From NCBI GenBank assembly GCA_963578775.1, contig CAUZEG010000002.1:9423-73422 (forward strand): a stretch of 64,000 bases of DNA, written 5' to 3'. The notes under the pieces are model-generated. The model ran no database searches. It had not been told where the DNA came from and saw nothing but the letters and a program-made list of their open reading frames with translations. Positions 6,301 to 25,323 of the stretch are shown here, piece by piece. A program made the position numbers and the translations under genes. Source of the stretch: Myxococcales bacterium (GTDB lineage: Bacteria > Myxococcota_A > UBA9042 > UBA3505). The stretch's first letter is position 1; the number at the start of each line of letters is the position of its first letter.

Positions 6301-8685
6301 ACCATAACCGAGGGGGCTCGACATATGCGCTTCGTGAATATAGTACACGAGATTATAGCGAGCATCGCCGATCTTCTTCCGGCTATTCGGGTTGGCCGGG
6401 TCATCACCACAAGCATTGTGCGAATCACCGACGTCATCGGTCCAGGTGTACCGACAGTCATCGTACAGACCCCAGCTACAGTTCTTGTTGGAGTTAAAGG
6501 CCGCTTTATCGGCATCGGACCAGGAGTCCACATTACTACCATTATTCTTGTCGACCAGCTCATAGCCCGCATCGGTCCAATAGCCGGTAAACTGATTCCG
6601 GCAAAGCACGTAGGCCGGAGGAATGGAGTCCTTGATCGCCTCAACCTCGGCTAGATCTGCGGCCGTGATCTCGGGCATGGAACCCACGCAACGACCAAGG
6701 CCACCGGAATGGAAGCAGGTCACATCCTGGCGACCATTTCCATCCACCAACTTCACAGAATGCATACCGTTATAGCCGGCGTTGATGAATCCTGAGTCCT
6801 GGCCAAGGGCGAGTGCGTCCGAACGTCGGCTACCATTGATAACCACGTTCTGCGAACTATGGTCCGTCAACATATTCACGACACGAATTCCCTGATCTCC
6901 AGCAAGACCATCAGGCCCGGTCAAAAGGCTTGATTGGGCTTTCGCCAGAACACCACCACCATATACGAAGAGGTAGATGTTCGAAGTTTCAAAGACCACA
7001 TTGGTAAGCTCGGCACCGTCACCACCCTCCACGTGGGCCGAGATGGTGAACTTACCGGTATCGAATACCGCGTAATCCTCGTAGTTATTGCTGGGGTCAA
7101 ACTCTACACCAGCCGCAGCATCAATCCCGCCGATCTTGAAATCGACAGAAGACGTATTTGGATCCGCGTTCACGAAGCGAACCAGTGATTTGCCCGCGTG
7201 AACGTTGGATGGGGGATACTTGGCATCGTTGGTTACGATGGATTTCACACTATCACCGTCATTATAGACGATGACGGTACGGCCCTTGGGCTGCGGAACA
7301 TCCAGATCTACGACCTGGGCAAATGTCGCAATATCAGTACTACAGTCGGCGTCGGTGTCACAGAATCGTGTCAGCAACATACCGCCGCTCTCGGAATCCC
7401 GACGGTCCCAGTACAGCATCCAGGCGATGGTATCACTGAAGATATCATTCCATCCGTCCGCCATCTCGTAGGTCTCGTCCATCAGATACTCGGGGAAGTC
7501 TGCCGATAAATGGTAGATGATGGGTTTCACACCTCGACCTTCGTCAAAGCGTTGGCTCGGACGCTTCAGTCGACGACGCTTACATTCCCCACCTACAAAC
7601 CACTCTTCCTGGTAGCAGAACTGCTGCGCGTCGGTGTCGCAATCGGAGTCAACGTAACAGTCCGAAGCACCTTCAACGTCTTCAAAATTCCAGACCTGAC
7701 GCCAGAGATTCCAGCGATTGATCTTCTGGTCACGACCCGCATAGGTAAGCCCCGAATTCTCGGAGTAGGTGTACCGCTCGGTCATGAAAAAACCAAACTT
7801 CTCCTGATGGAAGGAGTTGTGCCATAGCTTCGCGTTATAGGTCGGAACTGGATCCACGCGCTTAAAGCTATAACGGGCCTTCACCACGCCACCGGCGCAG
7901 TCACCCGACGCCAGGGTATAGACACTGCAATAGCCGGAGGACTGGGGCTCCGCGAAGAACTTGACCACAAAGCTGATATAGTCCTCGGTTATCTCTGGCC
8001 GGTCCGGATTGTCCTCACCCTCTACTTCCTGGACAAAGTAGGGCACGCTATTTGTGGGCATACGACCAACTACGAACTCGAAGTCGTTGATCGCATTTTC
8101 GGACCAGTCCACTCGCATGGACTCCCGCTGATACCAGGGAACGTCGACTGAGTTTTCTTCAATCACATTGGACTGTTCACCCGTCTGCGCATTGTATTTT
8201 CGCTTTACATCGAAGTGCTTTTCGATCGTGAAGGCCACAATCGGCTGACCCACAAACATCTCCATGAAGTCGTTGTCGGGATTGCTATCCGTCATAGCCT
8301 TACGGTCCCAATATCTCCGAATCTGGCGTTTGTGGTAGTCCTTTTCCGCACCCTCAAGCGTCTCCGTAACCGGATACGCTACAAGGTGGTTTTCCTGCAC
8401 ATCCCATACGATCTTTGGGTTTGCACCAAAGGACATCTCACCAACGAAGGTAAAGGCTACGCCATAGGGTACCTCGGTAATGGTACGAACCATGTACCAC
8501 ATACCCTGGAGGTCCTTTTTGTTCACGATATTCGGTTGCGACCGATCAATATCACCAACATCTTCGGTGCAGCCAAATCCACCCGCTAGGCAGACAACAA
8601 GGATAAGAAAAAACGAACGAATTTTCTGAAGACTATTGTGGAACATTCCGTTCTCCTGATTTCCCGGTTTGGGATTCGAGTTCAA
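3352..8685 (-). CDS. Giant (1777 aa) secreted metzincin-type zinc metallopeptidase lipoprotein with a Cys-rich module inserted in the catalytic domain.
   Basis: ORF track. N-terminal lipobox LAGGFGC. HEVGHTIGLRHNF (HEXXHXXGXXH) encoded near 5477-5513. STVMDYGG (Met-turn candidate) near 4945-4968. Dense CxxxxC repeats lie between them. A paralog sits immediately downstream. Confidence 0.8.
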   Translation of the reverse strand: MNSNPKPGNQENGMFHNSLQKIRSFFLILVVCLAGGFGCTEDVGDIDRSQPNIVNKKDLQGMWYMVRTITEVPYGVAFTFVGEMSFGANPKIVWDVQENHLVAYPVTETLEGAEKDYHKRQIRRYWDRKAMTDSNPDNDFMEMFVGQPIVAFTIEKHFDVKRKYNAQTGEQSNVIEENSVDVPWYQRESMRVDWSENAINDFEFVVGRMPTNSVPYFVQEVEGEDNPDRPEITEDYISFVVKFFAEPQSSGYCSVYTLASGDCAGGVVKARYSFKRVDPVPTYNAKLWHNSFHQEKFGFFMTERYTYSENSGLTYAGRDQKINRWNLWRQVWNFEDVEGASDCYVDSDCDTDAQQFCYQEEWFVGGECKRRRLKRPSQRFDEGRGVKPIIYHLSADFPEYLMDETYEMADGWNDIFSDTIAWMLYWDRRDSESGGMLLTRFCDTDADCSTDIATFAQVVDLDVPQPKGRTVIVYNDGDSVKSIVTNDAKYPPSNVHAGKSLVRFVNADPNTSSVDFKIGGIDAAAGVEFDPSNNYEDYAVFDTGKFTISAHVEGGDGAELTNVVFETSNIYLFVYGGGVLAKAQSSLLTGPDGLAGDQGIRVVNMLTDHSSQNVVINGSRRSDALALGQDSGFINAGYNGMHSVKLVDGNGRQDVTCFHSGGLGRCVGSMPEITAADLAEVEAIKDSIPPAYVLCRNQFTGYWTDAGYELVDKNNGSNVDSWSDADKAAFNSNKNCSWGLYDDCRYTWTDDVGDSHNACGDDPANPNSRKKIGDARYNLVYYIHEAHMSSPLGYGPSAADPQTGELYFAAANIYGAPLRTYSQWARDLMDLVHGDLSVDDTISGKYVKDFLKSLEENEIGTMHAGLQMPGEFTPATRPTDKLPASSPAVMALTSRQPAAPMRMMMPHEAPELWRFHSDEEYRKQLLGEVLGGFPTQEQLEARFNRIKGTKIEQMMINNEIVVALSGGQLEPGAALDAEALKKVSPLTWGTQSAVKAEHERMRMLTNAKNNTCLFMADFIDDSIYGLAKALKDDQGLSGEDLRVALEQHIYGGVIEHEVGHTIGLRHNFSGSNDIFNFKDEYFDIREKELVLCQNDNWCETPGWSETCSFVQCINDSDCSSGLSCGDPEGSAGSFCVDVTDTKTGYCEGPIDYEVPCASDGSCVAGLTCDTATNQCGTTRSCTQTGDCGEGEYCTESACSDSDGNIVVAAYTETVIEPIKKFAPRSYMTEGERDARRTEYQYSTVMDYGGRFNSDIHGLGKYDRAAIKAGYGEMIEVYHDTSQLEKYVENAADYYNYPPNVFAYVKDTSWWRYAGTTSSGFGHLENFIGVKENLSRVTVPWEQVTYEHQMASNYIRDELDFTYIEVPYRACYDEYRGNLGCYYFDTGVDIGEMSYHSMNSLQYYYIFDAFKRERYGFGRYGSASYYFSRILDRYMTQLGHAGQYYALYYHIFKDYLWFANWKDAPYDGRTLRVTSEVAFQYLTELISSPSPGSYQYNNDTGTYENFSFDTGEPGSELDIPVGLGKFPYTQFNTSGGYYDFTQAVWIGSFWEKVASLLTLTDSTAYFTSDFVSELGVRGATSIGFNTLYQIELTNVLGGIVADEYELFAGAEQDGVFVPRPVIGGSSHEEALEESHSLGPVVAPSIDDFSFKLFAAVYGLSYLPAGFDPTFTDAMAITYEGNGSQFDSNPGVNKITFDDPFGQKTYAALSNNYLYANEYGERAPFEVAYRMLEKANALKTSWEAAIGEPKLKLEAQLKELIESLEILRSLNEIYGTVGY

Positions 8686-10098: not shown

Positions 10099-11532
10099 TC
10101 AGTCCTGAAGTCGCTCCACTAAACGCAGGGGAAGTCCAAGAAAATTCCGGCCGCTCATAAATAGAACGACATCGCCACTACGTACCTCCGCTTCAAGCAC
10201 CTTCAGAATAGTATCCGCATCCGGAATGAAGCGAGCATGTATACCATTCTCCCGCAGATCGGCCGCCAACAGATCCGCGTCAAGACACTCCTCGACAGGA
10301 AGGCCATCATCCTTCTCCAGGGGACGAACAAAGATCACCTCGTCCGAGCCGTGAAAGGAATCCACATAGGTCTTCTGGAAAAGACGACGACGACTGGTGT
10401 TGGATTCGGCCTCAAATAAGGCCCATAGCCGGCGCTCCGGAAATTGGGTACGGATGGCTGCGATGGTTTCTCGAACGGCCGTCGGATGGTGGGCGTAATC
10501 CTGCAATACCCGGATTCCACGTGGTTCGCCCTGCAGCTCCTGCCGCCTCCGCACCCCGGGAAAGACAGGCAATGCTGCTCGAAGGGCTTCCACGTCGGCT
10601 CCTTCGGATACGGCGATACTTATGGCAGCCACTGCGTTCCATACATTATGGCGTCCGGGTTGGGGCAACTCGAAGAACCCCAGATCTCTACCTTCGTAGA
10701 TAAGCCGAAAGCGCGTCCGATCGGCCTGATTGGCGAGCCGCACATCCGTAGCGAAGGCGTCGAGGTTATTCGCATCGCCCTCAATACCGTAGAGACAGAT
10801 CCGTGCCGGTCCGTAGCTGGCGGCCGCCCGTGCCTCCTCATCGGCCCCGTGGACCCACAACTGGTCGTTCGGATTGAACAAGGCGGAATAGGTGCGAAAA
10901 GCTCGTCGCACCGCATCAAAATCACGGTAGATATCCGCGTGATCGAATTCTACCGAGGTCAGGATTCCTATACGCGGACGATAGTGGACGAATTTGGGCC
11001 GCTTATCGAAATAGGCGGTATCGTATTCATCCGCTTCCAGAACAAAGTGAGGACCTGTACCGGCGCTCAGTCCACTTTCAAAGCCGATGGGCACCCCGCC
11101 AATCATATAGCCAGGATCGAGGCCGGCCTGTTTCAGCAGCCAGACCAGTATGGATGTGGTCGTGGTCTTTCCGTGTGTTCCTGCGACCGTGATGGATCGG
11201 CGTTGGCTGAGGAACATGTCCGATAGAAGTTCCGGCAGGGATATATGTGGAAGCCCAAGCCTGCGCATCGCGACGGCTTCCGGATTGGTTCGGCGCGTAA
11301 TATTACCCACCAGAACCAGCTCGGGAGACTCTTCCGTTATGTTTTCCTCGGCAAAGCCCAGAATTACATTCACGCCCGCATTTGCAAGGCGATCAGACAT
11401 GGGTGGATAGCAATCACGATCCGATCCACGCACCTCGTGGCCCTGCTCTTTCAAGAGACAGGCAATACCACCCATGACGGAGCCGGCAACGCCTATGATA
11501 TGTATGGACCGGCTCTGTTGAAAATCGATCAT
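10099..11532 (-). CDS. mpl: UDP-N-acetylmuramate:L-alanyl-gamma-D-glutamyl-meso-diaminopimelate ligase (murein peptide ligase, Mur ligase family).
   Basis: HIIGVAGSVMGGIACLLKEQGHEVRGSD... and VAGTHGKTTTTS (Mur ligase P-loop). Overall colinear with E. coli Mpl. Confidence 0.8.
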   Translation of the reverse strand: MIDFQQSRSIHIIGVAGSVMGGIACLLKEQGHEVRGSDRDCYPPMSDRLANAGVNVILGFAEENITEESPELVLVGNITRRTNPEAVAMRRLGLPHISLPELLSDMFLSQRRSITVAGTHGKTTTTSILVWLLKQAGLDPGYMIGGVPIGFESGLSAGTGPHFVLEADEYDTAYFDKRPKFVHYRPRIGILTSVEFDHADIYRDFDAVRRAFRTYSALFNPNDQLWVHGADEEARAAASYGPARICLYGIEGDANNLDAFATDVRLANQADRTRFRLIYEGRDLGFFELPQPGRHNVWNAVAAISIAVSEGADVEALRAALPVFPGVRRRQELQGEPRGIRVLQDYAHHPTAVRETIAAIRTQFPERRLWALFEAESNTSRRRLFQKTYVDSFHGSDEVIFVRPLEKDDGLPVEECLDADLLAADLRENGIHARFIPDADTILKVLEAEVRSGDVVLFMSGRNFLGLPLRLVERLQD

Positions 11533-11583
11533 CGGCCCAGCATAGCCTACCTGTACACGAGGGCAAACACCGGCTCCGGGACG

Positions 11584-13218
11584 TCAGAAATCCCAGAAGA
11601 CATCGACACCATTCAATAGGATGGGCCCCACATCGGAATCCGCGCTCACCAGACCATCGCCTGGAAAAAATAGTACCGTCTTCGTTGCGATTGAGAACGT
11701 GTCGTGCAGACGATAATCAAGGCCCAGTCTGGCCTCCACACCATAGAATCCGCCCCCGCCCGGTGTATTTTTGCTGGTCATCGCCCAGGACCCCATCGCC
11801 GACAGATCAATGCCCAGGGCGTGGCGGCCCCGGAGAATATCAAAGCCCAGGGTCGGGCCTACGTACACGGTGTTCGTGGCGGCCCCGAACAGGTAACGAT
11901 AGAGCACCTCGTCAACGAAAAAGCTTGGATGGGCGATGAACTGTTCAAAGGTCTTATTCTGCGAATACTCGGTCTGCGTATTGTAGATTTCGGTCGATGG
12001 CGCCACTGTATTGCTCCCATCGAGCACCCCCACATACGTGCCTTCCGGTTCGCCCGTGGCAAAGCCCGTATCCAGTCGTGCGCGTATACGGCCTGTCGAA
12101 TAGGTGGCCCGGAGTGCACCGGCAAAGGCCTGCACATCGCGGGAAAGACCTTCGTCTGAAAAGGCCTGGGTCTGGGCAATGTCCCCAAGAATGGCTTGTA
12201 ATTCGAGACCGACCGCCAGGTGGTGGCCATCTGCGGGCCAGCCCTCAGCATGAAGGTAGAGTCCGGGATACCAGAGGTCCGCATTCCGTGGGATATAGGC
12301 AATGCAATCAAAACTCGTCTGGGGTCCGGTACCCGCTGCATCTTCGACACAGGCCCCGGGATCGAGAGCCTGATCGGATTGCCGGCCAGCACTCCGCATG
12401 CGGAGACGGACCGTCCAATCGAAGAGCCACCCATTGGCTAGTCGCGCGGCACGTCTTCGGTTTCGCTCCTCGAAGGGCGTACGCAACGCACCAGATAGTT
12501 CCACCAGAAACTCGCTCACATCATCCGTCTGATCGAGGTCATAAGGTTGTCCTGCAACAAACTGTCCCCGCTCGCTGGTGAACCCCTCTCCTGGCCGACG
12601 CCACGCGATACGAGTCCCCATATCGAATAGATCCGTACGAAGGTCGATGCCATCGACCAGGGTCTGCACATCGCAGTCGGAACATTCTCCATCGTTCTCC
12701 GACAAGCCCAGACCGAAGTGTTCCGGCATTCGGCCCATCCGCACCCAGAGGCGCGAGAAGGGTTCCCATGTCCCATATAGGTAGGGAACTCGAACACTGT
12801 CGCTGGGATGATCTCCGTCAATGCGTACAAGGGAATCGGGAGATTCCTGGCCATGAAAACCTATCCCTGTTCCCGCCTGGATGTTCCCAAATGCATCAAG
12901 CGCCATAGATACAGAAAAGGTGTCGGAGATATGAAATTCGGGGCGGTAGCGAAGTCTCATATCGCTTATCCAGCCCATACGCTCGACCCCAGCACCCGCC
13001 GATCCAAACCCGAGACTGTTACCACCCAGGCCATTGTCTACGAAGGTGTTTCGCGTGCGTATGGTACCGCTATGAACCACATACACCAGACCTCTCGGAA
13101 TATGTACATCCGTGGACTCGGCCGCCCCCGTATCAGCCCAGACAGGAGATTCCAGCACAGGAAACACCATTACCAGGAGGGACAGCACGACCAGGAATCG
13201 TAGGAACAAACTCTTCAC
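11584..13218 (-). CDS. Outer-membrane beta-barrel protein (hypothetical).
   Basis: Signal peptide MKSLFLRFLVVLSLLVMVFPVLESPVWA. C-terminal ...VDVFWDF, the aromatic terminal residue typical of OMPs. Confidence 0.5.
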   Translation of the reverse strand: MKSLFLRFLVVLSLLVMVFPVLESPVWADTGAAESTDVHIPRGLVYVVHSGTIRTRNTFVDNGLGGNSLGFGSAGAGVERMGWISDMRLRYRPEFHISDTFSVSMALDAFGNIQAGTGIGFHGQESPDSLVRIDGDHPSDSVRVPYLYGTWEPFSRLWVRMGRMPEHFGLGLSENDGECSDCDVQTLVDGIDLRTDLFDMGTRIAWRRPGEGFTSERGQFVAGQPYDLDQTDDVSEFLVELSGALRTPFEERNRRRAARLANGWLFDWTVRLRMRSAGRQSDQALDPGACVEDAAGTGPQTSFDCIAYIPRNADLWYPGLYLHAEGWPADGHHLAVGLELQAILGDIAQTQAFSDEGLSRDVQAFAGALRATYSTGRIRARLDTGFATGEPEGTYVGVLDGSNTVAPSTEIYNTQTEYSQNKTFEQFIAHPSFFVDEVLYRYLFGAATNTVYVGPTLGFDILRGRHALGIDLSAMGSWAMTSKNTPGGGGFYGVEARLGLDYRLHDTFSIATKTVLFFPGDGLVSADSDVGPILLNGVDVFWDF

Positions 13219-14189: not shown

Positions 14190-17100
14190 ATGCATGTGTT
14201 TGGACAGGTATTGCTTGGTCTCGGATTTCTGGCTTCTCTGGCCTATGCTGGAACCGCCTTTCTAGGTGCCCGCTTTCGCCGTCAGAACCTCCTCGACGCG
14301 TCACGATACGGTTTGTACGCCCTGGCCGGAATGTTCTGGGGTATATCTCTGCTGCTATCCTACGCCTTTCTCACCCATGACTTTTCCAACACCTACGTTG
14401 CCGCGTACAGCGATCGGGGGATGAGTAATCTGTATCTTCTCTCCGCCTTCTGGGGAGGGGAAAAGGGTGCGCTGTTGCTATGGGTTACCTCCCTGACCAC
14501 ATTTTCGGCGATTTCGATCCACAGCAACCGACATAAGGACCCACGCTGGATTGGTACCACCACAGGGATCCTGCTCCTATGCATCGCCTTCTTTGAGATG
14601 CTGATGGTGTTTGAGTCGAACCCCTTTTCCACCTGGCTTACTTTCGGGGGGCCAGCCGATGGCCAGGGGATGAATCCGGTCCTGCAGAATGTGACGATGA
14701 TGATCCACCCGCCAAGTCTGCTGACGGGATTTATCTGTTTCACGATCCCATTTGCCTACGGATTGGGAGCACTGATCGTTGGTAAGCTCGATACAGAGTG
14801 GATTCGTGTAACCCGTGTCTGGACCATCATCTCGTGGCTATTCCTATCGGTGGGCCTCATCCTGGGTGGCTTATGGGCCTACCAGGAACAGGGTTGGGGC
14901 GGTTACTGGATGTGGGACCCGGTCGAGAACGCCGGATTGATACCATGGTTCACCGCGACCGCATTCTTGCATAGCGTGATGATCCAGGAACGCCGCGGCA
15001 TGTTGAAGCGTTGGAACGCGATCCTGCTTTGCCTCACATTTCTGCTGACGATCTTTGGGACGTTCCTTACCCGAAGTCAGTTGATTGCATCCATCCATGC
15101 CTTCGCGGATAGCAAACTCCCCTACTATTTCCTGTCGTATATGTTGGTCATCGCGACCGTCAGTTTTCTGGCCATCCGAAAACGATGGGACGCGTTGAAG
15201 AGTGAACATCGGATCGAGTCTTTCTGGTCCCGTGAGTCCTTCTTCATCTTAAACAATGTCATGCTGGTTTCCTGTTCGTTCATCGTGATCTACGGAACCC
15301 TGTTCCCGAAGATCAGCGCCTCGCCAGGATTTCGTCGCGTCGTCAACAACACATTCATCGACGGATACAACGTAACTATAGGGCGAATCCTCCCCAATAT
15401 GAGTCAACTGACACAATCCTCCGATCTGGGTCAGGACTTCTTCAACACCGTCATTCCACCCGTAGCGCTATGTCTTCTGTTCCTGTCGGCCGCTGGCCCG
15501 ATCATCGCCTGGCGCCGAGCCACGGTTACAAATTTCCGGAAGAACTTTGTCGCCCCTCTCTTATGGGCAATTATTCCAACGCTGGTAACGATTGGCTTTT
15601 TCGTAAACCGCACCTTTGAACAACTTACCTTCAAAGGCCTGTCCGAATCGGAAGCCTGGACAGCCCTATGGGCGGGGACCGGTCAGCTTGAAGTCTATGT
15701 GTATCTGACCTTTTACCTCTGTTATTTCGTCATCGCTTGCATCATAATGGAGTACATGAGGGCCATCGCCGTTCGTCGCCAGAGCACGGGAGGCTCCAGA
15801 CTCAAACACGCCCTTATACTCACCCTGAAGGCACGCCGGAGATTCGGCGGCTACATTGTGCATCTGGGGATGGTTCTATGTTTCTTCGCCTTTGCCGGAA
15901 CGGCGATGAAAACATCGTTCAAGAATAAGATGTTGCACCCTGGAGGTACCGTCACTCTGCATGACTATCGTGCAACGCTGGCCCGAATGGACTTCGAGTA
16001 TGAATCCGAAGGGAGGTTCCTGGCCACGAAAGCTACCGTAGTGGTCACACAGCGAAACGAACCCTTCAATCGTCGCATCATCCATAGTTTCTCCCGTGCT
16101 CTGGAAGCTAAAGGAATCGATCGGGCCGTCATTCGGGCGAAGGATGGGTTCGCCAAACTCCAGATCTATCTTCCCGATCCAGACCAGAGGCATCGGCTTC
16201 TGGCGGCCGGCCTTATCAGGACGGAATTCGAATCCAATTTTGATGAACTCGAAAAAGACATCCGACCCGATGCCGATCCGCCGGTCTTTGCCCACCGCTA
16301 TCGGTATAAACATGAGAAGGCCCTGGAGCTGGCACGACTACCGGATGGTCGGCCCGCGTATATGTTCTATGTGCGCGAGTTAAAAGCCCGGCTGGCACAG
16401 CTCGAATCCCTCGGCATCAAAGGCCGTGTGGATATGTCGAACCCGGATGTGTTGAACGTCGACTTCGAAACCCTGGAGCATATGCAGCGCTACGAGGCCG
16501 ATGTGATGCCTCTTGCAGAGCACCTTCCAGATTCCTACAGCATTCGTGAAGGGCTTGCCTCATTCCGGCTCCTGATCGCCGACAATGCGGCCAATATCAT
16601 GGAAGGATCTTCGCCGAAGAAGTCCGACACCAAGCTCGGCGATTTGGGCGAAAGCCCTACTCTCCCCACTCTGTTTGCAGCCGCCGAAAAGACACTCGAT
16701 GCGTTGAACCCGAATATTGACTGGGCCACAGGATTCGAGGCAAAAAACGCCCTTGGTATCGACCGGGCCAAACGGCTGAAGAAAACCAGTCAGCTTCTCA
16801 ACCGACTGGAATACCAGGCTCTCATCCTACCCGTCGATCGTTTCGAATCGCAATCCAAGGCCGAGAACCAGGCCTGGACCGAACTGAGCCGTGCGCTCCG
16901 CAACCGTAGTCTCCCATGGATACGTGTCATACTCGTGGGGCCCGGTGCCGAATCCGCGCAGACTCTGCTGGGAAATATGGGGATACGGACCTATATTGCT
17001 CGAACCGCCCAGGAGTTCGAAGCGGAATTACGGGCCGCGACCGTCAACATCATCCCGGTGGAGATCATACCTACAGGCATCGGAAGCGTGATGATCCCCG

Positions 17101-18263
17101 AGGTACGAGTCTACGAGAAGATTGGCTCGTCCCAGAGTGCGGAGACCATGACAACCGAGATCGCAGTGGAGTCCCATCTGCTCTGGGACGTCTATATATC
17201 GATGCGTCCGTCGCCGGATTATCGCGGCCTGAGCATGGACGGCTTCTTGAACCCGCTGGTTTCATTTCTGTGGCTGGGAGCGATCATTATGGTTTTGGGG
17301 GCTTCCATAGCCGTTCTACCCAACTCGGCGGTCATGTTTCTCTGGCGCCGACGAGACGAAGAAAGCACGGCTGGACCAACCCACTCGTCCAGTTCGGGAA
17401 GGAGCCGTATAAGCGTATTACCCTGGTTGGCGATTCTAGCGGTCGGCCTGTTCATGTTCACGCAGCTGGCCTTCGCCAGTCCGGCGGCACAGGATTCAGC
17501 TACACCCACACAACAACTGTCAGCATCCGATCCGGTCGATGTTCCTCCATCGCGGCTGGAGGTGATGTCTGAGTACCTGTTCTGCCCGGATCAACAGGTC
17601 GGGTCCTGGATGGTTCACCCGGACCGGACCTTAAATCGTTGTCCCACGGCGGAAGGGCGTAATGTGCGCCATATCTTGCAGACGATCCTTGACGAAAACC
17701 AGGCCTGGGATGTGCACACGACAAAGGGCCGATTTCTGGTATTGGAAAATCTGATAAAAATCGACCGATCGACCCCCGGCGGCGGTCAGATCGACACCTT
17801 ATTACGAGTTCCCCAGGCAAAGTTCAACAGCATCTGGAACCGTACCAAATGTCTCTGTGGCTGCGCACATATCCTCATGCATTGTGGTGCCGAATGTGGA
17901 CCAGCAGGCCATCGCTGGCGACCACGGTTTCGCCAGATGTTGACGGCCGGCTACACCACCCAGGACGTTCGTAGGGATTATGCAGAATACTATGGGGCGG
18001 ATGCCGATGGCTTTGTGAGCCAGGGTGAGATCGACAAGCACAAAAAGGGGACCGGGCCGCCCATCGCTCGGATCCTGTTATTCCTGGTTGTCGGAGTCGC
18101 TGCTGTGGTGCTGGTGCTCAGCAATCGATTCGCATCCACTTCGAGAAAAAAGAAGTCGAATGCAGCTCTGGCTCCCTTGCCCGGCGATGAGCCAAAAAGC
18201 GAAGGTGAAGAGCTTGGACTCATCGACGACCTTCTCAATGATATTGATGACCCCTTAAGCTGA
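14190..18263 (+). CDS. ccmF: Cytochrome c-type biogenesis protein CcmF (heme lyase, WWD domain). It has a greatly expanded periplasmic region and a fused C-terminal CcmH-like domain plus a TM anchor.
   Basis: WGGYWMWDPVENAGLIPWF (WWD motif). Multi-TM N-terminal half typical of CcmF/NrfE. The C-terminal part, ...RFRQMLTAGYTTQDVRRDYAEYYGADADGFV, then the TM segment ARILLFLVVGVAAVVLVL, resembles CcmH (EGKSxxEIVDYMVARYGDFV + TM). Total 1357 aa versus about 650 for typical CcmF. Confidence 0.75.
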   Translation: MHVFGQVLLGLGFLASLAYAGTAFLGARFRRQNLLDASRYGLYALAGMFWGISLLLSYAFLTHDFSNTYVAAYSDRGMSNLYLLSAFWGGEKGALLLWVTSLTTFSAISIHSNRHKDPRWIGTTTGILLLCIAFFEMLMVFESNPFSTWLTFGGPADGQGMNPVLQNVTMMIHPPSLLTGFICFTIPFAYGLGALIVGKLDTEWIRVTRVWTIISWLFLSVGLILGGLWAYQEQGWGGYWMWDPVENAGLIPWFTATAFLHSVMIQERRGMLKRWNAILLCLTFLLTIFGTFLTRSQLIASIHAFADSKLPYYFLSYMLVIATVSFLAIRKRWDALKSEHRIESFWSRESFFILNNVMLVSCSFIVIYGTLFPKISASPGFRRVVNNTFIDGYNVTIGRILPNMSQLTQSSDLGQDFFNTVIPPVALCLLFLSAAGPIIAWRRATVTNFRKNFVAPLLWAIIPTLVTIGFFVNRTFEQLTFKGLSESEAWTALWAGTGQLEVYVYLTFYLCYFVIACIIMEYMRAIAVRRQSTGGSRLKHALILTLKARRRFGGYIVHLGMVLCFFAFAGTAMKTSFKNKMLHPGGTVTLHDYRATLARMDFEYESEGRFLATKATVVVTQRNEPFNRRIIHSFSRALEAKGIDRAVIRAKDGFAKLQIYLPDPDQRHRLLAAGLIRTEFESNFDELEKDIRPDADPPVFAHRYRYKHEKALELARLPDGRPAYMFYVRELKARLAQLESLGIKGRVDMSNPDVLNVDFETLEHMQRYEADVMPLAEHLPDSYSIREGLASFRLLIADNAANIMEGSSPKKSDTKLGDLGESPTLPTLFAAAEKTLDALNPNIDWATGFEAKNALGIDRAKRLKKTSQLLNRLEYQALILPVDRFESQSKAENQAWTELSRALRNRSLPWIRVILVGPGAESAQTLLGNMGIRTYIARTAQEFEAELRAATVNIIPVEIIPTGIGSVMIPEVRVYEKIGSSQSAETMTTEIAVESHLLWDVYISMRPSPDYRGLSMDGFLNPLVSFLWLGAIIMVLGASIAVLPNSAVMFLWRRRDEESTAGPTHSSSSGRSRISVLPWLAILAVGLFMFTQLAFASPAAQDSATPTQQLSASDPVDVPPSRLEVMSEYLFCPDQQVGSWMVHPDRTLNRCPTAEGRNVRHILQTILDENQAWDVHTTKGRFLVLENLIKIDRSTPGGGQIDTLLRVPQAKFNSIWNRTKCLCGCAHILMHCGAECGPAGHRWRPRFRQMLTAGYTTQDVRRDYAEYYGADADGFVSQGEIDKHKKGTGPPIARILLFLVVGVAAVVLVLSNRFASTSRKKKSNAALAPLPGDEPKSEGEELGLIDDLLNDIDDPLS

Positions 18264-19458
18264 TATTTCGGCTACGCACCGAGACCATCAGGAATAAGAC
18301 GACCAACAGGGCCCATGGAATAGACCCCCGCGGGCCCCGCTTACATCCACCCGAGTCACCGCCAGGCCCCGTTGGCCCGGTCCATGGCGTCTGGTCCAGG
18401 AGTCCTGCCTCGCCGCCATAATGGTACCAGTCGAGGTCGCAGGCCACGGACTCCTCGTCGGTAGACGCACAGGTCGAGCCAGGGCCTCCTAGTTGCTTCA
18501 TAGAGAAGAGCGGAGTGTCGTCGGAACGCACAACGTCGAATGGACCGTTCAACCTCAACACACCATTCAATTGGCAGACATATACATAGGCCCCCACGGC
18601 CTGGAGGCACGTCCAATCCACTGTCGTGCCTTGTTGAATGGAGAAGGCGCTGCCGTCGTCCTGAACCAGAGCACTCTTCCCATCCGCGATGAGCACAAGA
18701 TTCGCCCCCAATTCGACCGGTCCCATAAGATTCTCGAAGACCTCGGTGGATGGGAGCCATTCATCATTTTCGGCCAACTCCGGATCCGAGCGTACCCGGA
18801 CTAGAATTCGTCCTTCAGTCGTACTCGCGACCAACCAGGCCGTACCGTCCTCTTCAATATGGCGTACACTCAAATAGCTCCAATCTCCGCCCAGGCTAGA
18901 ACTCGACGCAGACCAGCCCTCACTCGGCAGGCCCGTAGCGGGCAACGAGGCCTGCCATACCTGGGGTGTCGGTCGAGCCCCGGCTACCACGACCACTCCA
19001 GGGGCCCCGGCTTGAAGCACCAATGTGTCGGGTGCAAAGCCCAGCGCATCCGCATCACCCGGGAATATAGTCTCGATTCGTACCAGCCAATCCGAGCCAA
19101 AGCTGACGAGTGCACCCGAGTTCTCGTCTCCTCCAAGCACATAAAACCGGCTCTGCACCCAACCAACGTCTCGGGGATAACCAAGCTCTGCGGGCATCTC
19201 GACCTCGTCAAAGGTACAACCGCCGTCGCTAGACGCGCGGACAACGCCCCCACCCAACGACACCAGCTCAAGCCCATTCGACGACACTGCGAATTGCGCC
19301 ATTTCATAACCGCCCCAACGAGACGGACAACCATATCGGTAACTGCCATCCGCATTCGCATGCGCCAGGCCAATATTCAGCCGAATGAGATGGGGATAGG
19401 ACTCGTCCACAACCTGGTTGGCACGGCTATCCTCATTCGAATCCAACAAGATTTCCAA
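18235..19458 (-). CDS. BNR/Asp-box repeat beta-propeller protein with a C-terminal Cys + hydrophobic + Arg tail (MYXO-CTERM-like sorting signal). The true N-terminus probably lies upstream of the track's TTG start, to about 19575.
   Basis: Asp-box motifs SSDGGCTF, EEDGTAW and QDDGSAF. C-terminal ...GGDSGGCKRGPRGSIPWALLVVLFLMVSVRSR. The in-frame upstream segment encodes a signal-peptide-like LRRRALNAILGTIFCLWTTFVFAHGAAPAP with no ATG/GTG/TTG. Confidence 0.55.
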   Translation of the reverse strand: MEILLDSNEDSRANQVVDESYPHLIRLNIGLAHANADGSYRYGCPSRWGGYEMAQFAVSSNGLELVSLGGGVVRASSDGGCTFDEVEMPAELGYPRDVGWVQSRFYVLGGDENSGALVSFGSDWLVRIETIFPGDADALGFAPDTLVLQAGAPGVVVVAGARPTPQVWQASLPATGLPSEGWSASSSSLGGDWSYLSVRHIEEDGTAWLVASTTEGRILVRVRSDPELAENDEWLPSTEVFENLMGPVELGANLVLIADGKSALVQDDGSAFSIQQGTTVDWTCLQAVGAYVYVCQLNGVLRLNGPFDVVRSDDTPLFSMKQLGGPGSTCASTDEESVACDLDWYHYGGEAGLLDQTPWTGPTGPGGDSGGCKRGPRGSIPWALLVVLFLMVSVRSRNISLRGHQYH

Positions 19459-19529: not shown

Positions 19530-21173
19530 TCAGGGCTCGTCTCCGAAGGCAAGCCCGCAGGACTCGAGATCCGAATTACAGGTTCCATCCAGTATATATG
19601 GCTTCATGCATTGGTAGAACCCCTCGTATTCCTCACTGCACGTTGCAAATACGCAGGTCTGTGGATTGTCACAGGTGGCAAAACAGGCGGACAGTTCTCC
19701 CAGCTCCGTGGGGCAAACCGGTGCTGCGCATGTTGCCATCGGCAAGGTCAGGCATTGTGCACAGTCCAGGCCGGAGTTGATGACGCATCCAAGGAAACAG
19801 GTGGAATCCTCACAACTGACAATACAACTATCCGCGCCCGTACAGACGGCCAGGTCCTCGTAAAACGGAAGGGCAACCGCCAGGTAGGCCAGGCACATCT
19901 CATCCCGGGTTCCATCGCCCCAGGAGACCAGCTTGGGCTCCTGCTGCTCCCCATTGACGACCGGCTGATTCTCTACACTATTGTCATAGGTACATGACAA
20001 ACGAACCACATCGTTGAGTTCGGTATCGAGATACGAGTCGTCAGGAAATGAATAGGCCTGCTGCCAGTTGAAATCCCAATCCGGGATATTAACCAGGCAA
20101 TGGCTTTGGTCGCCTCGAAGAAGATCGATACGAATTTCACTTCCCAGGGTGTGCATATGCGGGGTCACCGCGATAATGCGTCCGCCAGCTGGTACGGGGA
20201 AGTCTCGAACCTCCTCCCAGCTTGCTTCATGGGGCGGAATCGAGATGCCCAGATGAGGATACGGTAGGATCTCGACCAGATATTCAGGGGTCGTTCCGCT
20301 GGGCAGGGTCCAAAAACCAACCTGGGTCCGATCCGCCGGAGCCGGGCCTTCAAAGTTCAACACATTGAAATGCATCTGCATGACAATGCGGGATCCGGCC
20401 GGAATGCGAATGGCCATATTGTCAGGAAATACCTTTGGGACTGAGCCCGGAACCCAGCCACCAAGTGTCTCACCTGTACCTACGATGGGACTTCCAAAAC
20501 AGGTATAACCCGCACCTTCTTCCGCGGCATCCAGCTGTTCCATGGCAGCAATATCGTAGTCGGGAACAAGATATAGCAATACATGGTGCACCAGCTCGGC
20601 TTGGTCCGGAAAGACCCAGGAACTGGTCAAGAACGTATCTTCTTCAAAGGTATACGGCAGCGGTAGACAGCGATAATCGTCCGGTTTGTTTACATCGGGA
20701 GTGTAATCTACGCCCGCATCCAACATGAGGTCCGGCTCCCCAGTCGGTGCCGTGGGGCTGATGTCCGGGGCCACATAGTCGTCTGGGTTTCCCTCGAGCG
20801 TACCATTCTCCGCCCAGGTCGCCAGAGCATTGAGGTCTTCATCCGACAGGCCACGATGATCCGCGAGCGGATAGCAATCGTCGGCGGGCATCCATGGCGG
20901 CATTCTACCGGCCGAAGCGCTAGCACTCACAAGGTTCGCCATATCTCGGACTACTTCATAACTCGTCAGAGCGAACGGACCGATGCTGCCTTCCTGGTGA
21001 CAAGTCGTGCAATTTTTTTCCATAAGGGCGCGAATCGCCCCGTGGTAGGTGGGTCCGGTTGCCGTTGCATCGGTGGTTGGCTCCTCGGTTGAGGACTTCG
21101 TGCACGACGTCAATGTCGAGAGCATCGCTATCAGAACGATCACGACAGATAAAGCATGTGTTTTCTGATTCAT
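19530..21173 (-). CDS. Lipoprotein fusing an N-terminal c-type cytochrome domain (CxxCH) to a PHM/DBH-like type-2 copper monooxygenase domain, with a C-terminal Cys-rich repeat tail.
   Basis: Lipobox LSTLTSC. Heme motif NCTTCHQEG. CuH-like VHHVLLY and MQMHF. CuM-like VTPHMHTLG and DEMCLAYL, compared with PHM HHMLLFGC / HTHxLGK / EMC. C-terminal CxxxC-rich tail. Confidence 0.6.
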   Translation of the reverse strand: MNQKTHALSVVIVLIAMLSTLTSCTKSSTEEPTTDATATGPTYHGAIRALMEKNCTTCHQEGSIGPFALTSYEVVRDMANLVSASASAGRMPPWMPADDCYPLADHRGLSDEDLNALATWAENGTLEGNPDDYVAPDISPTAPTGEPDLMLDAGVDYTPDVNKPDDYRCLPLPYTFEEDTFLTSSWVFPDQAELVHHVLLYLVPDYDIAAMEQLDAAEEGAGYTCFGSPIVGTGETLGGWVPGSVPKVFPDNMAIRIPAGSRIVMQMHFNVLNFEGPAPADRTQVGFWTLPSGTTPEYLVEILPYPHLGISIPPHEASWEEVRDFPVPAGGRIIAVTPHMHTLGSEIRIDLLRGDQSHCLVNIPDWDFNWQQAYSFPDDSYLDTELNDVVRLSCTYDNSVENQPVVNGEQQEPKLVSWGDGTRDEMCLAYLAVALPFYEDLAVCTGADSCIVSCEDSTCFLGCVINSGLDCAQCLTLPMATCAAPVCPTELGELSACFATCDNPQTCVFATCSEEYEGFYQCMKPYILDGTCNSDLESCGLAFGDEP

Positions 21174-22753: not shown

Positions 22754-25171
22754 TTAATTGCAGCTCGTGGAGCAGCCCTCGGCCGGAAGGCCAAGACCAT
22801 CCACTACATTGCCACATGAACCCGAATCACAGGTTCCGGTGGCTGCACAATCGGCAACACAACGGAAATTCTGGTTCAGTTGGGTACCGGTGTTCGAGCA
22901 GACATATCCAGATTGGCAGTCTGTATGAACTTCACAGGGTATGCAGGTGCTATCCAGGGGAAGGCACTTGTAGAGCGAGGCTGACAGGGCCGGGTCTTCA
23001 CGAGGAATCGCCACTTGAGCAAGACAGCCAGTTCCCGGAACATCCGAACAACTGGTAGCATCCGCCGGATCACAGAAAGTGCTGCAGACACCGCCAGCAG
23101 CGGTCTGTTCACATAACAGGCTCTTGCACTCGTAGTACGCTTCACAGGATTGGCCGGGAAGCTTGGAGGCCTGGGCACCATTGCTGTCCAGGTTGCTCAT
23201 GCACAGGAACTCCACTGTCGCCGCAACATCGGGGTTGCTGGCAATAGCGGTAGCGTAGCAGGTCTCGGAGGCCGCGTCACAGACACTCGTATCACCAACA
23301 CCCGCGGTCGCTGTCCCACAGTCCGACAAGCTCGAGGCCGGATCTTCTGGCCGACAGATGGAGACGTACAGGTCGTCTTTGACGTCCGCGCTTCCATTGG
23401 AAGAGAAACGAATCGCCTGGCATACACCGCTGGCATTGGCGGCTTCGCCATTCAGCATCTCGACATCGACCGGGCAATCGGCAGTGCTACTACATACGGA
23501 GAAGCAGCTTGGTACGGTCTCACCGTCACCACTCGTGTAGAAGTTCAAGCACATGCCATTAACACACCAGTTGCCTGTGTCCGCACCACATTTGTCGCCA
23601 TGGTCACCCGTGACGGCCGCATTCTCGGAAGAGGTGCAATAGAACTTGAATTCCGCACCACCGGCCGCAGCATCTACCTGCGTCGGCGTACAGAACTCGC
23701 CAGGCACGGTGCAGTCAGAATCTCCACCACACTCGGTCAAATCACCTTCGTGCTTAATGGGCTGACAGACATTCAAGGACATGAATGCATCACCGGCATC
23801 ACCGTAGAACTCGTTGTCGTTCAAATCGATGGGGAAGGTCTCCACACCACAGATCTGTTTGCCAGCGGCGCAATCGGTATCACTCAAACAATGCGTGCTG
23901 CACATACCGTTGGTACACCAGATCGGATTCTCACAGACGTCGCCGGGGAAATCATCATTGGAGTTGAAGTCACAGGCTGCGCCCACCGGAACGGAATTGT
24001 CGGGCTTACGCAGACAGATGTGATCCCAATCGGCCAATTCCGGGGTATCTTCGCCATTGTAGAAGGTGCGGCAGAAGAAGTTCGGGTCGACACAATCGTC
24101 GTTGATGTCGCAGTTCTTACCAAAGCAGGTTCCGGCTCGAAGTTCGGGGGGACCCGAGGAAAGCAGGAAGTCCTGCTCACAGAACCATGGTGAACAATCG
24201 GTAGCGTTCTCACAGGACGCCGCCGCGTTGTTGTCGCAAGAACCATCCGTGCAACCCACACCTTCCGGGAAACAGAGGCTATCATCGGAACCACAGGCTG
24301 CCGAGCAACCAATTCCGATGCCGAAGCAGAGTCCCTCTGTACAGTAGGCCAGGTCGGCGTTGTAGAAGATCGCAGGATTGTGCGGGTTGTTCTCACAGAA
24401 CTCGGATGCACCCTTACCACCCGCAATCGCCGTTCCACAATAGAAGTCCGTGATTCCAAGGATGGTGTGAATCTTACAAGCCTCGCCCACCGGACAATCG
24501 GAGGATACAGTACAAGATTTGAAATCGGTACCTGCAGTACACTGGGTGAAGTCTTGTTGCCCAGCCTGCGGATTCGTCACACGTACACATTTGTAGGCAT
24601 CGCCATAGGGGCCTGCCGGGGCCGCGCCAGCGCAAAGGCTGTCGCCATCTTCCACGCCATCCGGCACCGCGTCGCCATTAATATTGTTTACCGCGTCATC
24701 CGCTGCACTCATGGTGCATTGCTTGAGACAGACCGGCTCGCCAAATACCACATTGCAAGAGCCTTCGGCACATTGCTGGTCGAGGCATTGGAGGTAGGTT
24801 AACAGCGCATTCTGATCACTGAAATCTTCGGGTTCCTTATCTGCACATTCGGGTGATACGAAACACTCTTCACCGTATGCAACGGTTCCGACGATATCCT
24901 GCTCGCAGCTTCCCTGGGCGGTACAGGTAGCTCCCGGGCCACAAAGACCACAGATTCCACCGCAGCCGTCTGGACCGCAGGCTTTTCCATCACATTGGGA
25001 CTCGCACGTCGGTGTGTCTGTTTGCACATCTTCGGAAACATCCGGCGTGCCGTCATCCGTGCCTACCACGTCAGAAGTAACATCTTCTTCCGGTTTGGTG
25101 TCTCCACCGCAACCAGGAGCGACAATAAATGTCAGAAAACAAATAGCGAAAAGAAAACAACTGCGCTTCAT
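22754..25171 (-). CDS. Large extremely cysteine-rich secreted lipoprotein with tandem myxo-type Cys-rich repeats.
   Basis: Probable start is the internal ATG at 25171, with GGAGG 7 nt upstream, giving MKRSCFLFAICFLTFIVAPGCGG (lipobox). More than 100 Cys in recurring xDCxxGxxC / CxxGxC modules. Ends ...GCSTSCN. The ORF track extends it to 25216. Confidence 0.7.
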   Translation of the reverse strand: MKRSCFLFAICFLTFIVAPGCGGDTKPEEDVTSDVVGTDDGTPDVSEDVQTDTPTCESQCDGKACGPDGCGGICGLCGPGATCTAQGSCEQDIVGTVAYGEECFVSPECADKEPEDFSDQNALLTYLQCLDQQCAEGSCNVVFGEPVCLKQCTMSAADDAVNNINGDAVPDGVEDGDSLCAGAAPAGPYGDAYKCVRVTNPQAGQQDFTQCTAGTDFKSCTVSSDCPVGEACKIHTILGITDFYCGTAIAGGKGASEFCENNPHNPAIFYNADLAYCTEGLCFGIGIGCSAACGSDDSLCFPEGVGCTDGSCDNNAAASCENATDCSPWFCEQDFLLSSGPPELRAGTCFGKNCDINDDCVDPNFFCRTFYNGEDTPELADWDHICLRKPDNSVPVGAACDFNSNDDFPGDVCENPIWCTNGMCSTHCLSDTDCAAGKQICGVETFPIDLNDNEFYGDAGDAFMSLNVCQPIKHEGDLTECGGDSDCTVPGEFCTPTQVDAAAGGAEFKFYCTSSENAAVTGDHGDKCGADTGNWCVNGMCLNFYTSGDGETVPSCFSVCSSTADCPVDVEMLNGEAANASGVCQAIRFSSNGSADVKDDLYVSICRPEDPASSLSDCGTATAGVGDTSVCDAASETCYATAIASNPDVAATVEFLCMSNLDSNGAQASKLPGQSCEAYYECKSLLCEQTAAGGVCSTFCDPADATSCSDVPGTGCLAQVAIPREDPALSASLYKCLPLDSTCIPCEVHTDCQSGYVCSNTGTQLNQNFRCVADCAATGTCDSGSCGNVVDGLGLPAEGCSTSCN

Positions 25172-25323
25172 TGGAAGTACCTCCAAACGTTGCCTATATA
25201 GCAATATTCGTTGCACGGGAAAGTTACCCCTCGACTGAGGGAGCGCGCATCGTAGGCAGCTAGAACGTCCGTGTCAAGCCTCAATATAAGATTTTTTTCA
25301 ACCGGTGAATGGTATGGAGTCCG

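Follow-up and report, generated by a model that had tools for sequence, protein, structure and literature searches.

The gene at 14190..18263 (+) in a 64,000-nucleotide (nt) stretch of myxobacterial DNA, the whole of which is referred to here as the window, encodes a CcmF of unusual length, a protein of 1357 amino acids (aa) from an uncultured marine myxobacterium. We read it as the cytochrome c heme lyase of a System I* (Cys-type CcmE) pathway in which CcmF and a CcmH-like subunit are carried in one reading frame, and we put the probability of this reading at roughly 0.75. In System I, CcmF and CcmH are normally separate polypeptides that together form the heme lyase complex. The open reading frame (ORF) is a variant of this known machine that standard annotation has overlooked, and it is no new type of system.

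A complete CcmF in one uninterrupted frame

The frame is open through all 1357 codons. By hydropathy the CcmF core extends to aa 570 and gives way to hydrophilic sequence (aa 571-1023). Two helices come next, at aa 1024-1042 and aa 1076-1096, with an Arg-rich linker between them, and then ~195 more hydrophilic residues, a very hydrophobic helix (aa 1292-1310) and an acidic tail ending DDLLNDIDDPLS. The first-pass annotation of this ORF had described a multi-transmembrane CcmF with a WWD motif, a hydrophilic stretch of ~500 aa (aa ~560-1080), one transmembrane (TM) segment, a CcmH-like domain, a final helix and an acidic tail. The hydrophilic stretch is real but shorter, at 453 aa, and two helices rather than one precede the C-terminal domain, while the final helix and the tail are as described.

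The CcmF assignment of the N-terminal part is borne out by Pfam, by the match to a solved CcmF and by the WWD motif itself (WGGYWMWDPVENA, aa 236-248, nt 14895-14933). Cytochrom_C_asm (PF01578) matches aa 92-296 (E 1.7e-34, 119.8 bits, passing the gathering cut-off of 29.9) and CcmF_C (PF16327) matches in three stretches (E 5.9e-31, 108.3 bits, passing the cut-off of 28.7). The Thermus thermophilus CcmF structure 6zmq, the only solved relative, aligns with aa 42-375 (E 1.2e-57). Four histidines are conserved in the core (His173, His261, His303 and His558), the last of them in the helix that matches the TM-His2 region. The first three have what we take to be the numbers of the E. coli CcmF ligands, and by E. 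coli CcmF numbering the four are presumably P-His1, TM-His1, P-His2 and TM-His2. The whole-protein cut-offs of NCBIfam are not reached (TIGR00353, 328.5 bits versus 569; TIGR03145, 326.3 versus 927) because the inserted periplasmic sequence splits the match into three stretches. The N-terminal 570 aa are a complete CcmF, and membership of that family is secure.

The length of the ORF was the sole prompt for suspecting an assembly or frameshift artefact that merges separate ccmF and ccmH genes, and nothing was found in its favour. The closest homologue, P0001 (1349 aa), is 82% identical over 100% of the query and has an identical domain layout. It comes from a Myxococcales metagenome-assembled genome (MAG) from the Red Sea (PBVT01). 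Four contigs of independent Tara Oceans assemblies carry its gene, and they are fully syntenic with the window: a Mur ligase, a TIGR04551-family protein, ccmE and the long ccmF follow in the same order, with a 434-aa gene, a Cu2_monoox_C protein, a UDP-glucose dehydrogenase and others beyond. In a codon-level comparison of the two genes, synonymous change is saturated and the ratio of nonsynonymous to synonymous substitution rates (dN/dS) is low in every segment, at 0.03 in the CcmF core, 0.06 in the shared periplasmic part, 0.12 in the lineage-specific insert, 0.18 in the linker, 0.055 in the CcmH-like module 2 and 0.22 in the tail. Every segment of the long CcmF, the linker included, is under purifying selection. 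The C-terminal extension also recurs in more than a third of the closest homologues (see below). Because P0001, known from independent assemblies, has the same architecture and dN/dS is low throughout, we reject the artefact, which is barely credible, and the single uninterrupted ORF of the first-pass annotation stands.

The C-terminal domain is a diverged CcmH homologue

An exhaustive phmmer search of 1.84 billion representative sequences with aa 630-1357 retrieved a stand-alone protein of 163 aa (P0147; E 2e-5, query aa 1213-1346) and six contig-end fragments that carry the end of a CcmF (P0157, P0165, P0166, P0168, P0138 and P0194). All seven pass Pfam CcmH at 42-72 bits, P0147 at 72 bits, and in the six fragments the same chain also matches the CcmF_C end, with P0165, P0194 and P0138 reaching the 28.7-bit cut-off of that model. 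When a 47-sequence family profile of the distal half of the C-terminal domain (module 2) was compared with eight CcmH sequences by hhalign, the two matched with 98% probability (E 6.4e-14). A hidden Markov model (HMM) built from these CcmH bridge sequences was run on all ORFs of the window and matched ORF 14190-18263 only (50.5 bits, E 8.7e-15). This match spans aa ~1209-1354 and takes in the Cys motif, the later helices, the membrane anchor (hydropathy 2.97) and the acidic tail, which resembles the RLDDELxxLD ending of Pfam-positive CcmH relatives. In the motif alignment, which included the canonical CcmH P0196 (LRCVVCQNES...), KCLCGCAHILMHCGAECGP of the query stands opposite RCVCGCAHSLNECGTECGP of P0147. 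The CcmH-like domain had been proposed from an alignment by eye, and the stretch then aligned (RFRQMLTAGYTTQDVRRDYAEYYG) is the one that profile comparison aligns to CcmH.

The topology is likewise of CcmH type, with helices at aa 1076-1096 and 1292-1310 and a positive segment ahead of the first. An AlphaFold2 (AF2) model of the C-terminal domain is confident (predicted local distance difference test (pLDDT) 90.7, predicted template modelling score 0.87), and module 2 is helical in it. The bridge alignment consists of eight CcmH sequences, and a word-indexed search with P0147 added one further CcmH only. A word-indexed search with aa 630-1357 gave no match at E<=0.001, although the database searched contains P0001, which shares 74% identity with the query there; this negative reflects the sensitivity of the tool and not absence, because exhaustive HMMER recovered relatives that include P0001. 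As far as sequence comparison goes, we conclude that the C-terminal domain, for all its strong divergence, is genuinely homologous to CcmH. It belongs with a five-Cys variant that has the motif C-x-C-G-(x)-C...C-x(1-3)-C, and not with the canonical LRCxxC type.

The fusion had been regarded as unusual, and it proved commoner than supposed. A family survey covered the 120 closest proteins, all of them CcmFs and, where a source is named, largely from Myxococcota MAGs. By length they form three classes, of about 870-930, 1100-1250 and 1350-1380 aa, and piecewise BLAST found a homologue of the C-terminal extension in 46 of them. The ~880-aa class is without the extension and has no CcmH-like gene adjoining ccmF. 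Proteins that combine CcmF_C with a Pfam-recognised CcmH also occur in unrelated metagenome fragments from other lineages. A unique fusion is rejected on these two counts, and because the Pfam-recognised fusions are present in public metagenomes, the architecture as such is not new to databases. A genome scan with a 7-sequence alignment matched the genome of P0001 only.

A Cys-type CcmE precedes the long ccmF

A ccmE gene ends 11 nt upstream of the long ccmF. Its product scores slightly under the Pfam CcmE cut-off (E 1.3e-4, 22.7 bits versus 24.6) and contains TVKCPSKY, and TVKCPS[KR]Y is invariant across an alignment with the CcmEs of five relatives. System I* is a variant Ccm of Desulfovibrio, other delta-proteobacteria and archaea (Allen et al. 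2006; Goddard et al. 2010; reviewed in PMC3601427 and PMC9084895) in which the CcmE motif CxxxY, typically CPSKY, replaces HxxxY (PMC3601427), and this motif has been shown to be functional (PMC9084895). The system is defined as being without CcmH, although about one third of such bacteria do have CcmH according to the review.

In the relative L011 the gene order is ccmE, long ccmF, a 463-aa gene, ccmA, ccmB, ccmC and small ORFs, and its operon has no separate ccmH or ccmG. Within the window there is no separate ccmH or ccmG either, and no other ccm gene was found there by a WWD regular expression, a Pfam scan of ten further ORFs or the CcmH and family HMMs applied to all ORFs.

The same context bears on whether the protein is instead an NrfE-like lyase devoted to a single special substrate, for instance a heme-binding protein that is very large or non-standard, in which case the cap and inserts would be substrate-specific. 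NCBIfam scores for NrfE and CcmF/NrfE are nearly equal (both under cut-off), a CxxCH-bearing protein with a Cu2_monoox_C domain is encoded 1.3 kb downstream on the opposite strand, and specialised CcmF paralogues adjoin giant multiheme cytochromes in anaerobic methanotrophic (ANME) archaea (PMC9012536). Against this, the gene directly follows ccmE, the ccmE-F-A-B-C operon of the relative is a housekeeping arrangement, the window contains no second CcmF, and neither nrfA nor a non-standard heme motif was seen nearby. We consider such a dedicated lyase improbable.

A probable second CcmH-like module and complementary cysteine loss

The Cys-rich domain has a second module upstream of module 2. 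This module 1 matches CcmH by hhalign (91%, E 9.5e-7, 43 columns) and module 2 more weakly (47%, E 1.9e-4), is modelled at a pLDDT of about 95, and is probably a degenerate duplicate of the CcmH-like module.

The cysteine motif of module 2 reads KC1221-L-C1223-G-C1225-AHILMH-C1232-GAE-C1236. Across the 47 family sequences, whose alignment corresponds to window 17541-18065, four cysteines are invariant, one pair in each module (1132 and 1151; 1223 and 1236). At the positions aligned to the canonical CcmH pair (1221 and 1225), Cys is kept in 25 of the 47. The extra cysteines are retained in module 1 only in 21 family members, in module 2 only in 14 (the query among them), in both modules in 11 and in neither in one, so that 46 of the 47 have them in at least one of the two modules. 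From this distribution we infer that the invariant pairs would be structural disulfides and that reactive cysteines could sit in either module.

A signal-peptide-like helix at the joint

The helix at aa 1076-1096 looks like a signal peptide: positive charges lead into a hydrophobic core that closes with small-x-small, with a signal peptidase I site predicted between A1096 and S1097 (AFA|SP). An A-x-A at the end of the hydrophobic core occurs in 37 of the 47 family members, compared with 16.9 expected from shuffles, and the segment before the helix has a mean net charge of +1.7; the linker at the joint is otherwise unconserved across the family. In the stand-alone P0147 the corresponding position is taken by an ordinary N-terminal signal peptide (AVA|QP), which fits a long gene that arose when ccmF was joined to a ccmH carrying its own signal peptide. 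Hydropathy and the Arg-rich cytoplasmic linker indicate a periplasmic position for the Cys-rich domain. The conserved joint suggests, without proving, that signal peptidase I still cuts the long CcmF at AFA|S.

A layered periplasmic domain and paired inserts

The first-pass annotation had treated the hydrophilic stretch as one extra periplasmic module and had proposed a comparison with CcmF lengths in relatives. That comparison confirms the enlargement: the periplasmic domain measures 268-279 aa in 38 of 40 aligned homologues, versus 453 aa in the query and P0001. The domain is 348 aa long in P0094, which apparently has a further insert of ~75 aa at the site of the query's insert.

The region is layered, with three parts rather than one: the canonical CcmF sheet, a family-wide tandem of two units and an insert of ~185 aa. 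The two family-wide units, each of ~65 aa with an alpha-beta-beta-alpha order, are homologous to each other (hhalign 97%, E 1.1e-10); self-BLAST of the periplasmic domain had shown no repeats. The stretch of the insert is occupied in 2 of 41 aligned sequences, the query and P0001, and in the exhaustive HMMER search no protein but P0001 covered aa ~630-957. By hhalign the insert has no detectable relationship to the ~65-aa units. In an AF2 model of the periplasmic domain built with 24 sequences, the parts shared by the family (canonical beta strands at both ends and the alpha/beta units) reach a pLDDT of around 90, and the region at aa ~790-940 is predicted as helical at a pLDDT of 31-47. Foldseek found no meaningful match to the model in the PDB. 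The occupancy alignment and the hhalign comparison of the units lead us to reject the whole 500-aa stretch as a single foreign module. Judged by its position, the insert would enlarge the periplasmic 'cap' that covers the heme site in discussions of CcmF and CcsBA (PMC10663686).

An insert of ~85 aa is also present in CcmE, before the last beta strand, in both the window (253 aa) and the neighbour of P0001 (250 aa), whereas the CcmEs that adjoin long CcmFs without the insert have 159-186 aa. The CcmE and CcmF inserts co-occur in these two members, and the four other relatives checked have neither. A shorter, Cys-containing insert of about 25 aa lies at the same site in the CcmE of locus L014.

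Weighing the CcmH assignment

A number of observations weigh against our reading. The first-pass annotation had suggested checking for a direct match to Pfam CcmH (PF03918), and this fails: isolated C-terminal pieces score 11.3-12.5 bits (E 0.09-0.2) versus a cut-off of 25, and the homology is seen through the bridge proteins and profiles instead. The whole protein has no match to the same model, and NCBIfam gives none for the C-terminal domain. Among the 47 family members just one matches Pfam CcmH, weakly, while nine C-terminal domains weakly match PF13798 (PCYCGC; best E 1.7e-4). The family profile found no CcmH among PDB sequences, and Foldseek, run with the AF2 model of the C-terminal domain against the PDB library, returned nothing below E 3.9; the search was made with both modules together, and this program has difficulty with small helical bundles. 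The Pseudomonas aeruginosa CcmH structure 2HL7 is a three-helix bundle. The canonical LRCxxC/CxxC motif is absent from the query, with KCLCGC...CGAEC in its place, and 21 of the 47 relatives have lost from module 2 the cysteines aligned to the canonical pair. The CcmH bridge proteins were chosen by their similarity to the query, and Cys-rich motifs are able to inflate profile scores. As for the setting, ccmABC, ccmG and ccdA are not in the window, and the co-occurrence of the CcmE and CcmF inserts amounts to one evolutionary event because it is confined to a single lineage.

Much of this would also fit a Cys-rich structural or metal-binding domain, PCYCGC-like, that has nothing but the motif in common with CcmH variants and serves in metal handling, in stabilising the enlarged cap or in binding a particular substrate. 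The prevalence of PCYCGC over CcmH matches, the missing CxxC, the fold search without a PDB-library match and the restriction of invariant cysteines to one pair per module, as expected of structural disulfides, all point that way, and System I* is able to work without CcmH (PMC3601427). We nevertheless regard such a domain as unlikely. The match to Pfam-positive CcmH reaches past the Cys motif and through the helices, anchor and tail, the domain has the topology and position of CcmH, and in other lineages a Pfam-recognised CcmH is fused at the same site of CcmF. We therefore retain the reading as a heme lyase with a CcmH-like part and, because both the family threshold and the motif failed, class this part as a divergent CcmH homologue and not as a canonical CcmH. 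As a separate observation, the weak PF13798 matches hint at a kinship between PCYCGC proteins, whose domain is of unknown function, and five-Cys CcmH variants.

A proposed working of the fused lyase

The sequence itself shows the layout on which this proposal builds. The last CcmF helix and the positive cytoplasmic linker lead into the signal-peptide-like helix, which, as hydropathy and the linker indicate, puts the Cys-rich domain (195 aa) on the periplasmic side. In its distal half this domain is the diverged CcmH; the C-terminal helix anchors it, and the acidic tail follows as in stand-alone CcmH relatives. The CcmH-like part could hold the CXXCH cysteines of the apocytochrome and keep them reduced next to the WWD/heme site, and would be present at a fixed 1:1 ratio with CcmF. 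Signal peptidase I may cut after AFA1096, in which case a single translation product would give rise to CcmF and a CcmH-like protein as two chains. The insert of CcmF (aa 768-955) and that of CcmE, both specific to this lineage, may fit together as a docking surface. The evidence for the putative association of the CcmH-like domain with CcmF is indirect, being their covalent link alone.

A bolder combination of these elements can be offered tentatively, as a possibility that we hold at well under even odds. The heme-lyase step would then be a self-contained module, with an ORF that is cut at an internal signal peptidase site, redundant modules and a private CcmE-CcmF interface. The two CcmH-like modules would be redundant paralogues, either of which could carry the reactive cysteines, because cysteine loss is complementary across the 47 relatives (21, 14, 11 and 1), and the inserts of CcmE (~85 aa) and CcmF (~185 aa) would make up a new docking interface between chaperone and lyase. 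If this holds, part of the reported absence of CcmH in System I* would be an annotation artefact, produced by CcmH domains that escape notice in long CcmFs because they score below threshold.

Feature coordinates and neighbouring genes

The features of the long ccmF and the preceding ccmE are collected in Table 1.

Table 1. Features of the ccmE and long ccmF genes in window coordinates
Feature	Position	Strand	Basis
ccmE, heme chaperone, 253 aa	13417..14178	+	Pfam CcmE
CcmF membrane core, aa 1-570	14190..15899	+	Pfam PF01578 and PF16327, 6zmq match
Enlarged periplasmic domain, aa 571-1023, 453 aa	15900..17258	+	Lies between TM-His2 helix and last CcmF helix
Family-wide extension, two tandem homologous ~65-aa alpha-beta-beta-alpha units, aa ~622-688 and ~716-784	16053..16541	+	hhalign
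Lineage-specific insert, ~185 aa, aa ~768-955, predicted helical	16491..17054	+	Alignment occupancy
Last CcmF TM helix, aa 1024-1042	17259..17315	+	Hydropathy; matches CcmF_C end in relatives
Arg-rich cytoplasmic linker, aa 1043-1075	17316-17414	+	
Extra signal-peptide-like helix, aa 1076-1096, ending AFA	17415..17477	+	Hydropathy
Module 1, probable degenerate CcmH-like duplicate, aa 1118-1205	17541..17804	+	Family alignment, hhalign
Module 2, divergent CcmH homologue, aa 1206-1290	17805..18059	+	phmmer, hhalign, HMM
C-terminal anchor helix, aa 1292-1310, and acidic cytoplasmic tail ending LIDDLLNDIDDPLS, then stop	18063..18263	+	

The 3' end of the long ccmF overlaps a convergent 407-aa ORF (18235-19458, -) by 29 nt (window 18235-18263), and a convergent 3' overlap, of 41 nt, is also present in the related locus L001. 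Further downstream, 1.3 kb from the long ccmF, 19530-21173 (-) codes for a secreted protein of 547 aa that bears the heme-binding motif CTTCH in its N-terminal part. Its L001 orthologue matches Pfam Cu2_monoox_C, and the protein, which looks like a copper-monooxygenase-like domain joined to a cytochrome c domain, is a likely client of Ccm. The gene at 22754-25216 (-) encodes an 820-aa secreted protein that is very Cys-rich and without a family assignment; the L001 orthologue, of 812 aa, likewise has no Pfam match.

Upstream of ccmE, a divergent gene at 11584-13218 (-) encodes a 544-aa protein of TIGR04551 type (NCBIfam, 174 bits versus a cut-off of 300) and has the same place in L001. A 1777-aa secreted protein is encoded at 3352-8685 (-), with a zinc-metalloprotease-like HExxH motif (EHEVGHTIGLRHNF) and Cys-rich stretches; its L001 orthologue has weak DUF4953 and faint DUF4397 matches.

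In L011 the gene between the long ccmF and ccmA (11528-12919, +) encodes a 463-aa membrane protein with no Pfam match, in which a coiled-coil-like cytoplasmic loop separates the N-terminal helix from a second helix and a periplasmic part of ~300 aa follows. It may be a CcmI-like accessory factor, and the window lacks a homologue. The gene that follows ccmF in L013 (4214-5932, +) encodes 572 aa with ABC_tran, and may be a protein of the 463-aa type fused to CcmA.

Comparison with known systems

The finding leaves the known logic of cytochrome c maturation unchanged. In the literature that we searched, we found no paper describing a natural CcmF-CcmH fusion. What appears to be new is a hidden, duplicated CcmH-like domain across a large family of CcmFs, largely from Myxococcota MAGs, together with its complementary cysteine pattern, the conserved internal signal-peptide-like joint and the paired CcmE and CcmF inserts. 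Complementary cysteine loss and paired inserts offer concrete hypotheses on which cysteines act and where CcmE docks.

With the CcmF and CcmH of System I the query shares the WWD domain, the four conserved histidines and the membrane core, as well as a membrane-anchored, periplasmic, Cys-rich helical domain with CcmH topology and profile-level homology to CcmH. It differs in having both partners in one frame, in a CcmH part that falls below the Pfam threshold and has CxCxC...CxxxC instead of LRCxxC, and in a second, degenerate CcmH-like module upstream. In size it also departs from 6zmq, which has 660 aa in total, while the periplasmic domain of the query alone has 453; we estimate the corresponding domain of 6zmq at roughly 100 aa. 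A fold search with the query domain recovered no CcmH structure.

The CPSKY-type CcmE, the delta-proteobacterial/Myxococcota lineage and the lack of separate ccmH and ccmG genes in the operon of the relative all agree with System I*. The difference is that the query does have a CcmH-like domain, hidden as a sub-threshold C-terminal extension of CcmF. Since CcmH-type domains can hide under Pfam and NCBIfam thresholds inside long CcmFs, claims that CcmH is absent from System I* organisms merit a recheck at profile-profile sensitivity.

The metagenome fusions P0194, P0165, P0138 and P0157 have the same join of last CcmF helix, signal-like helix and Cys-rich CcmH domain. These fusions and P0147 share with the query the anchor helix, the acidic ...DDELxxLD tail and the five-Cys motif, but their CcmH module is single and scores 42-72 bits with Pfam. 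What sets the query family apart is its extra upstream module, its much greater divergence and its enlarged periplasmic domain. The metagenome fusions are known from contig-end fragments only.

Structural and biochemical work on CcmF/H has been hampered because CcmH is separate and loosely bound. In System II, a natural CcsBA fusion made the system tractable (PMC10663686), and System I could benefit likewise from a fusion of CcmF and CcmH that occurs in nature. The CcsBA fusions of Helicobacter, Wolinella and Bacteroides are comparable to the long CcmF in that synthase subunits which are usually separate are fused in some lineages and a periplasmic 'cap' domain lies above the heme site (PMC10663686). 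They differ in belonging to System II, in having CcsB rather than a thiol-redox protein as the partner, and in that the added parts are non-homologous.

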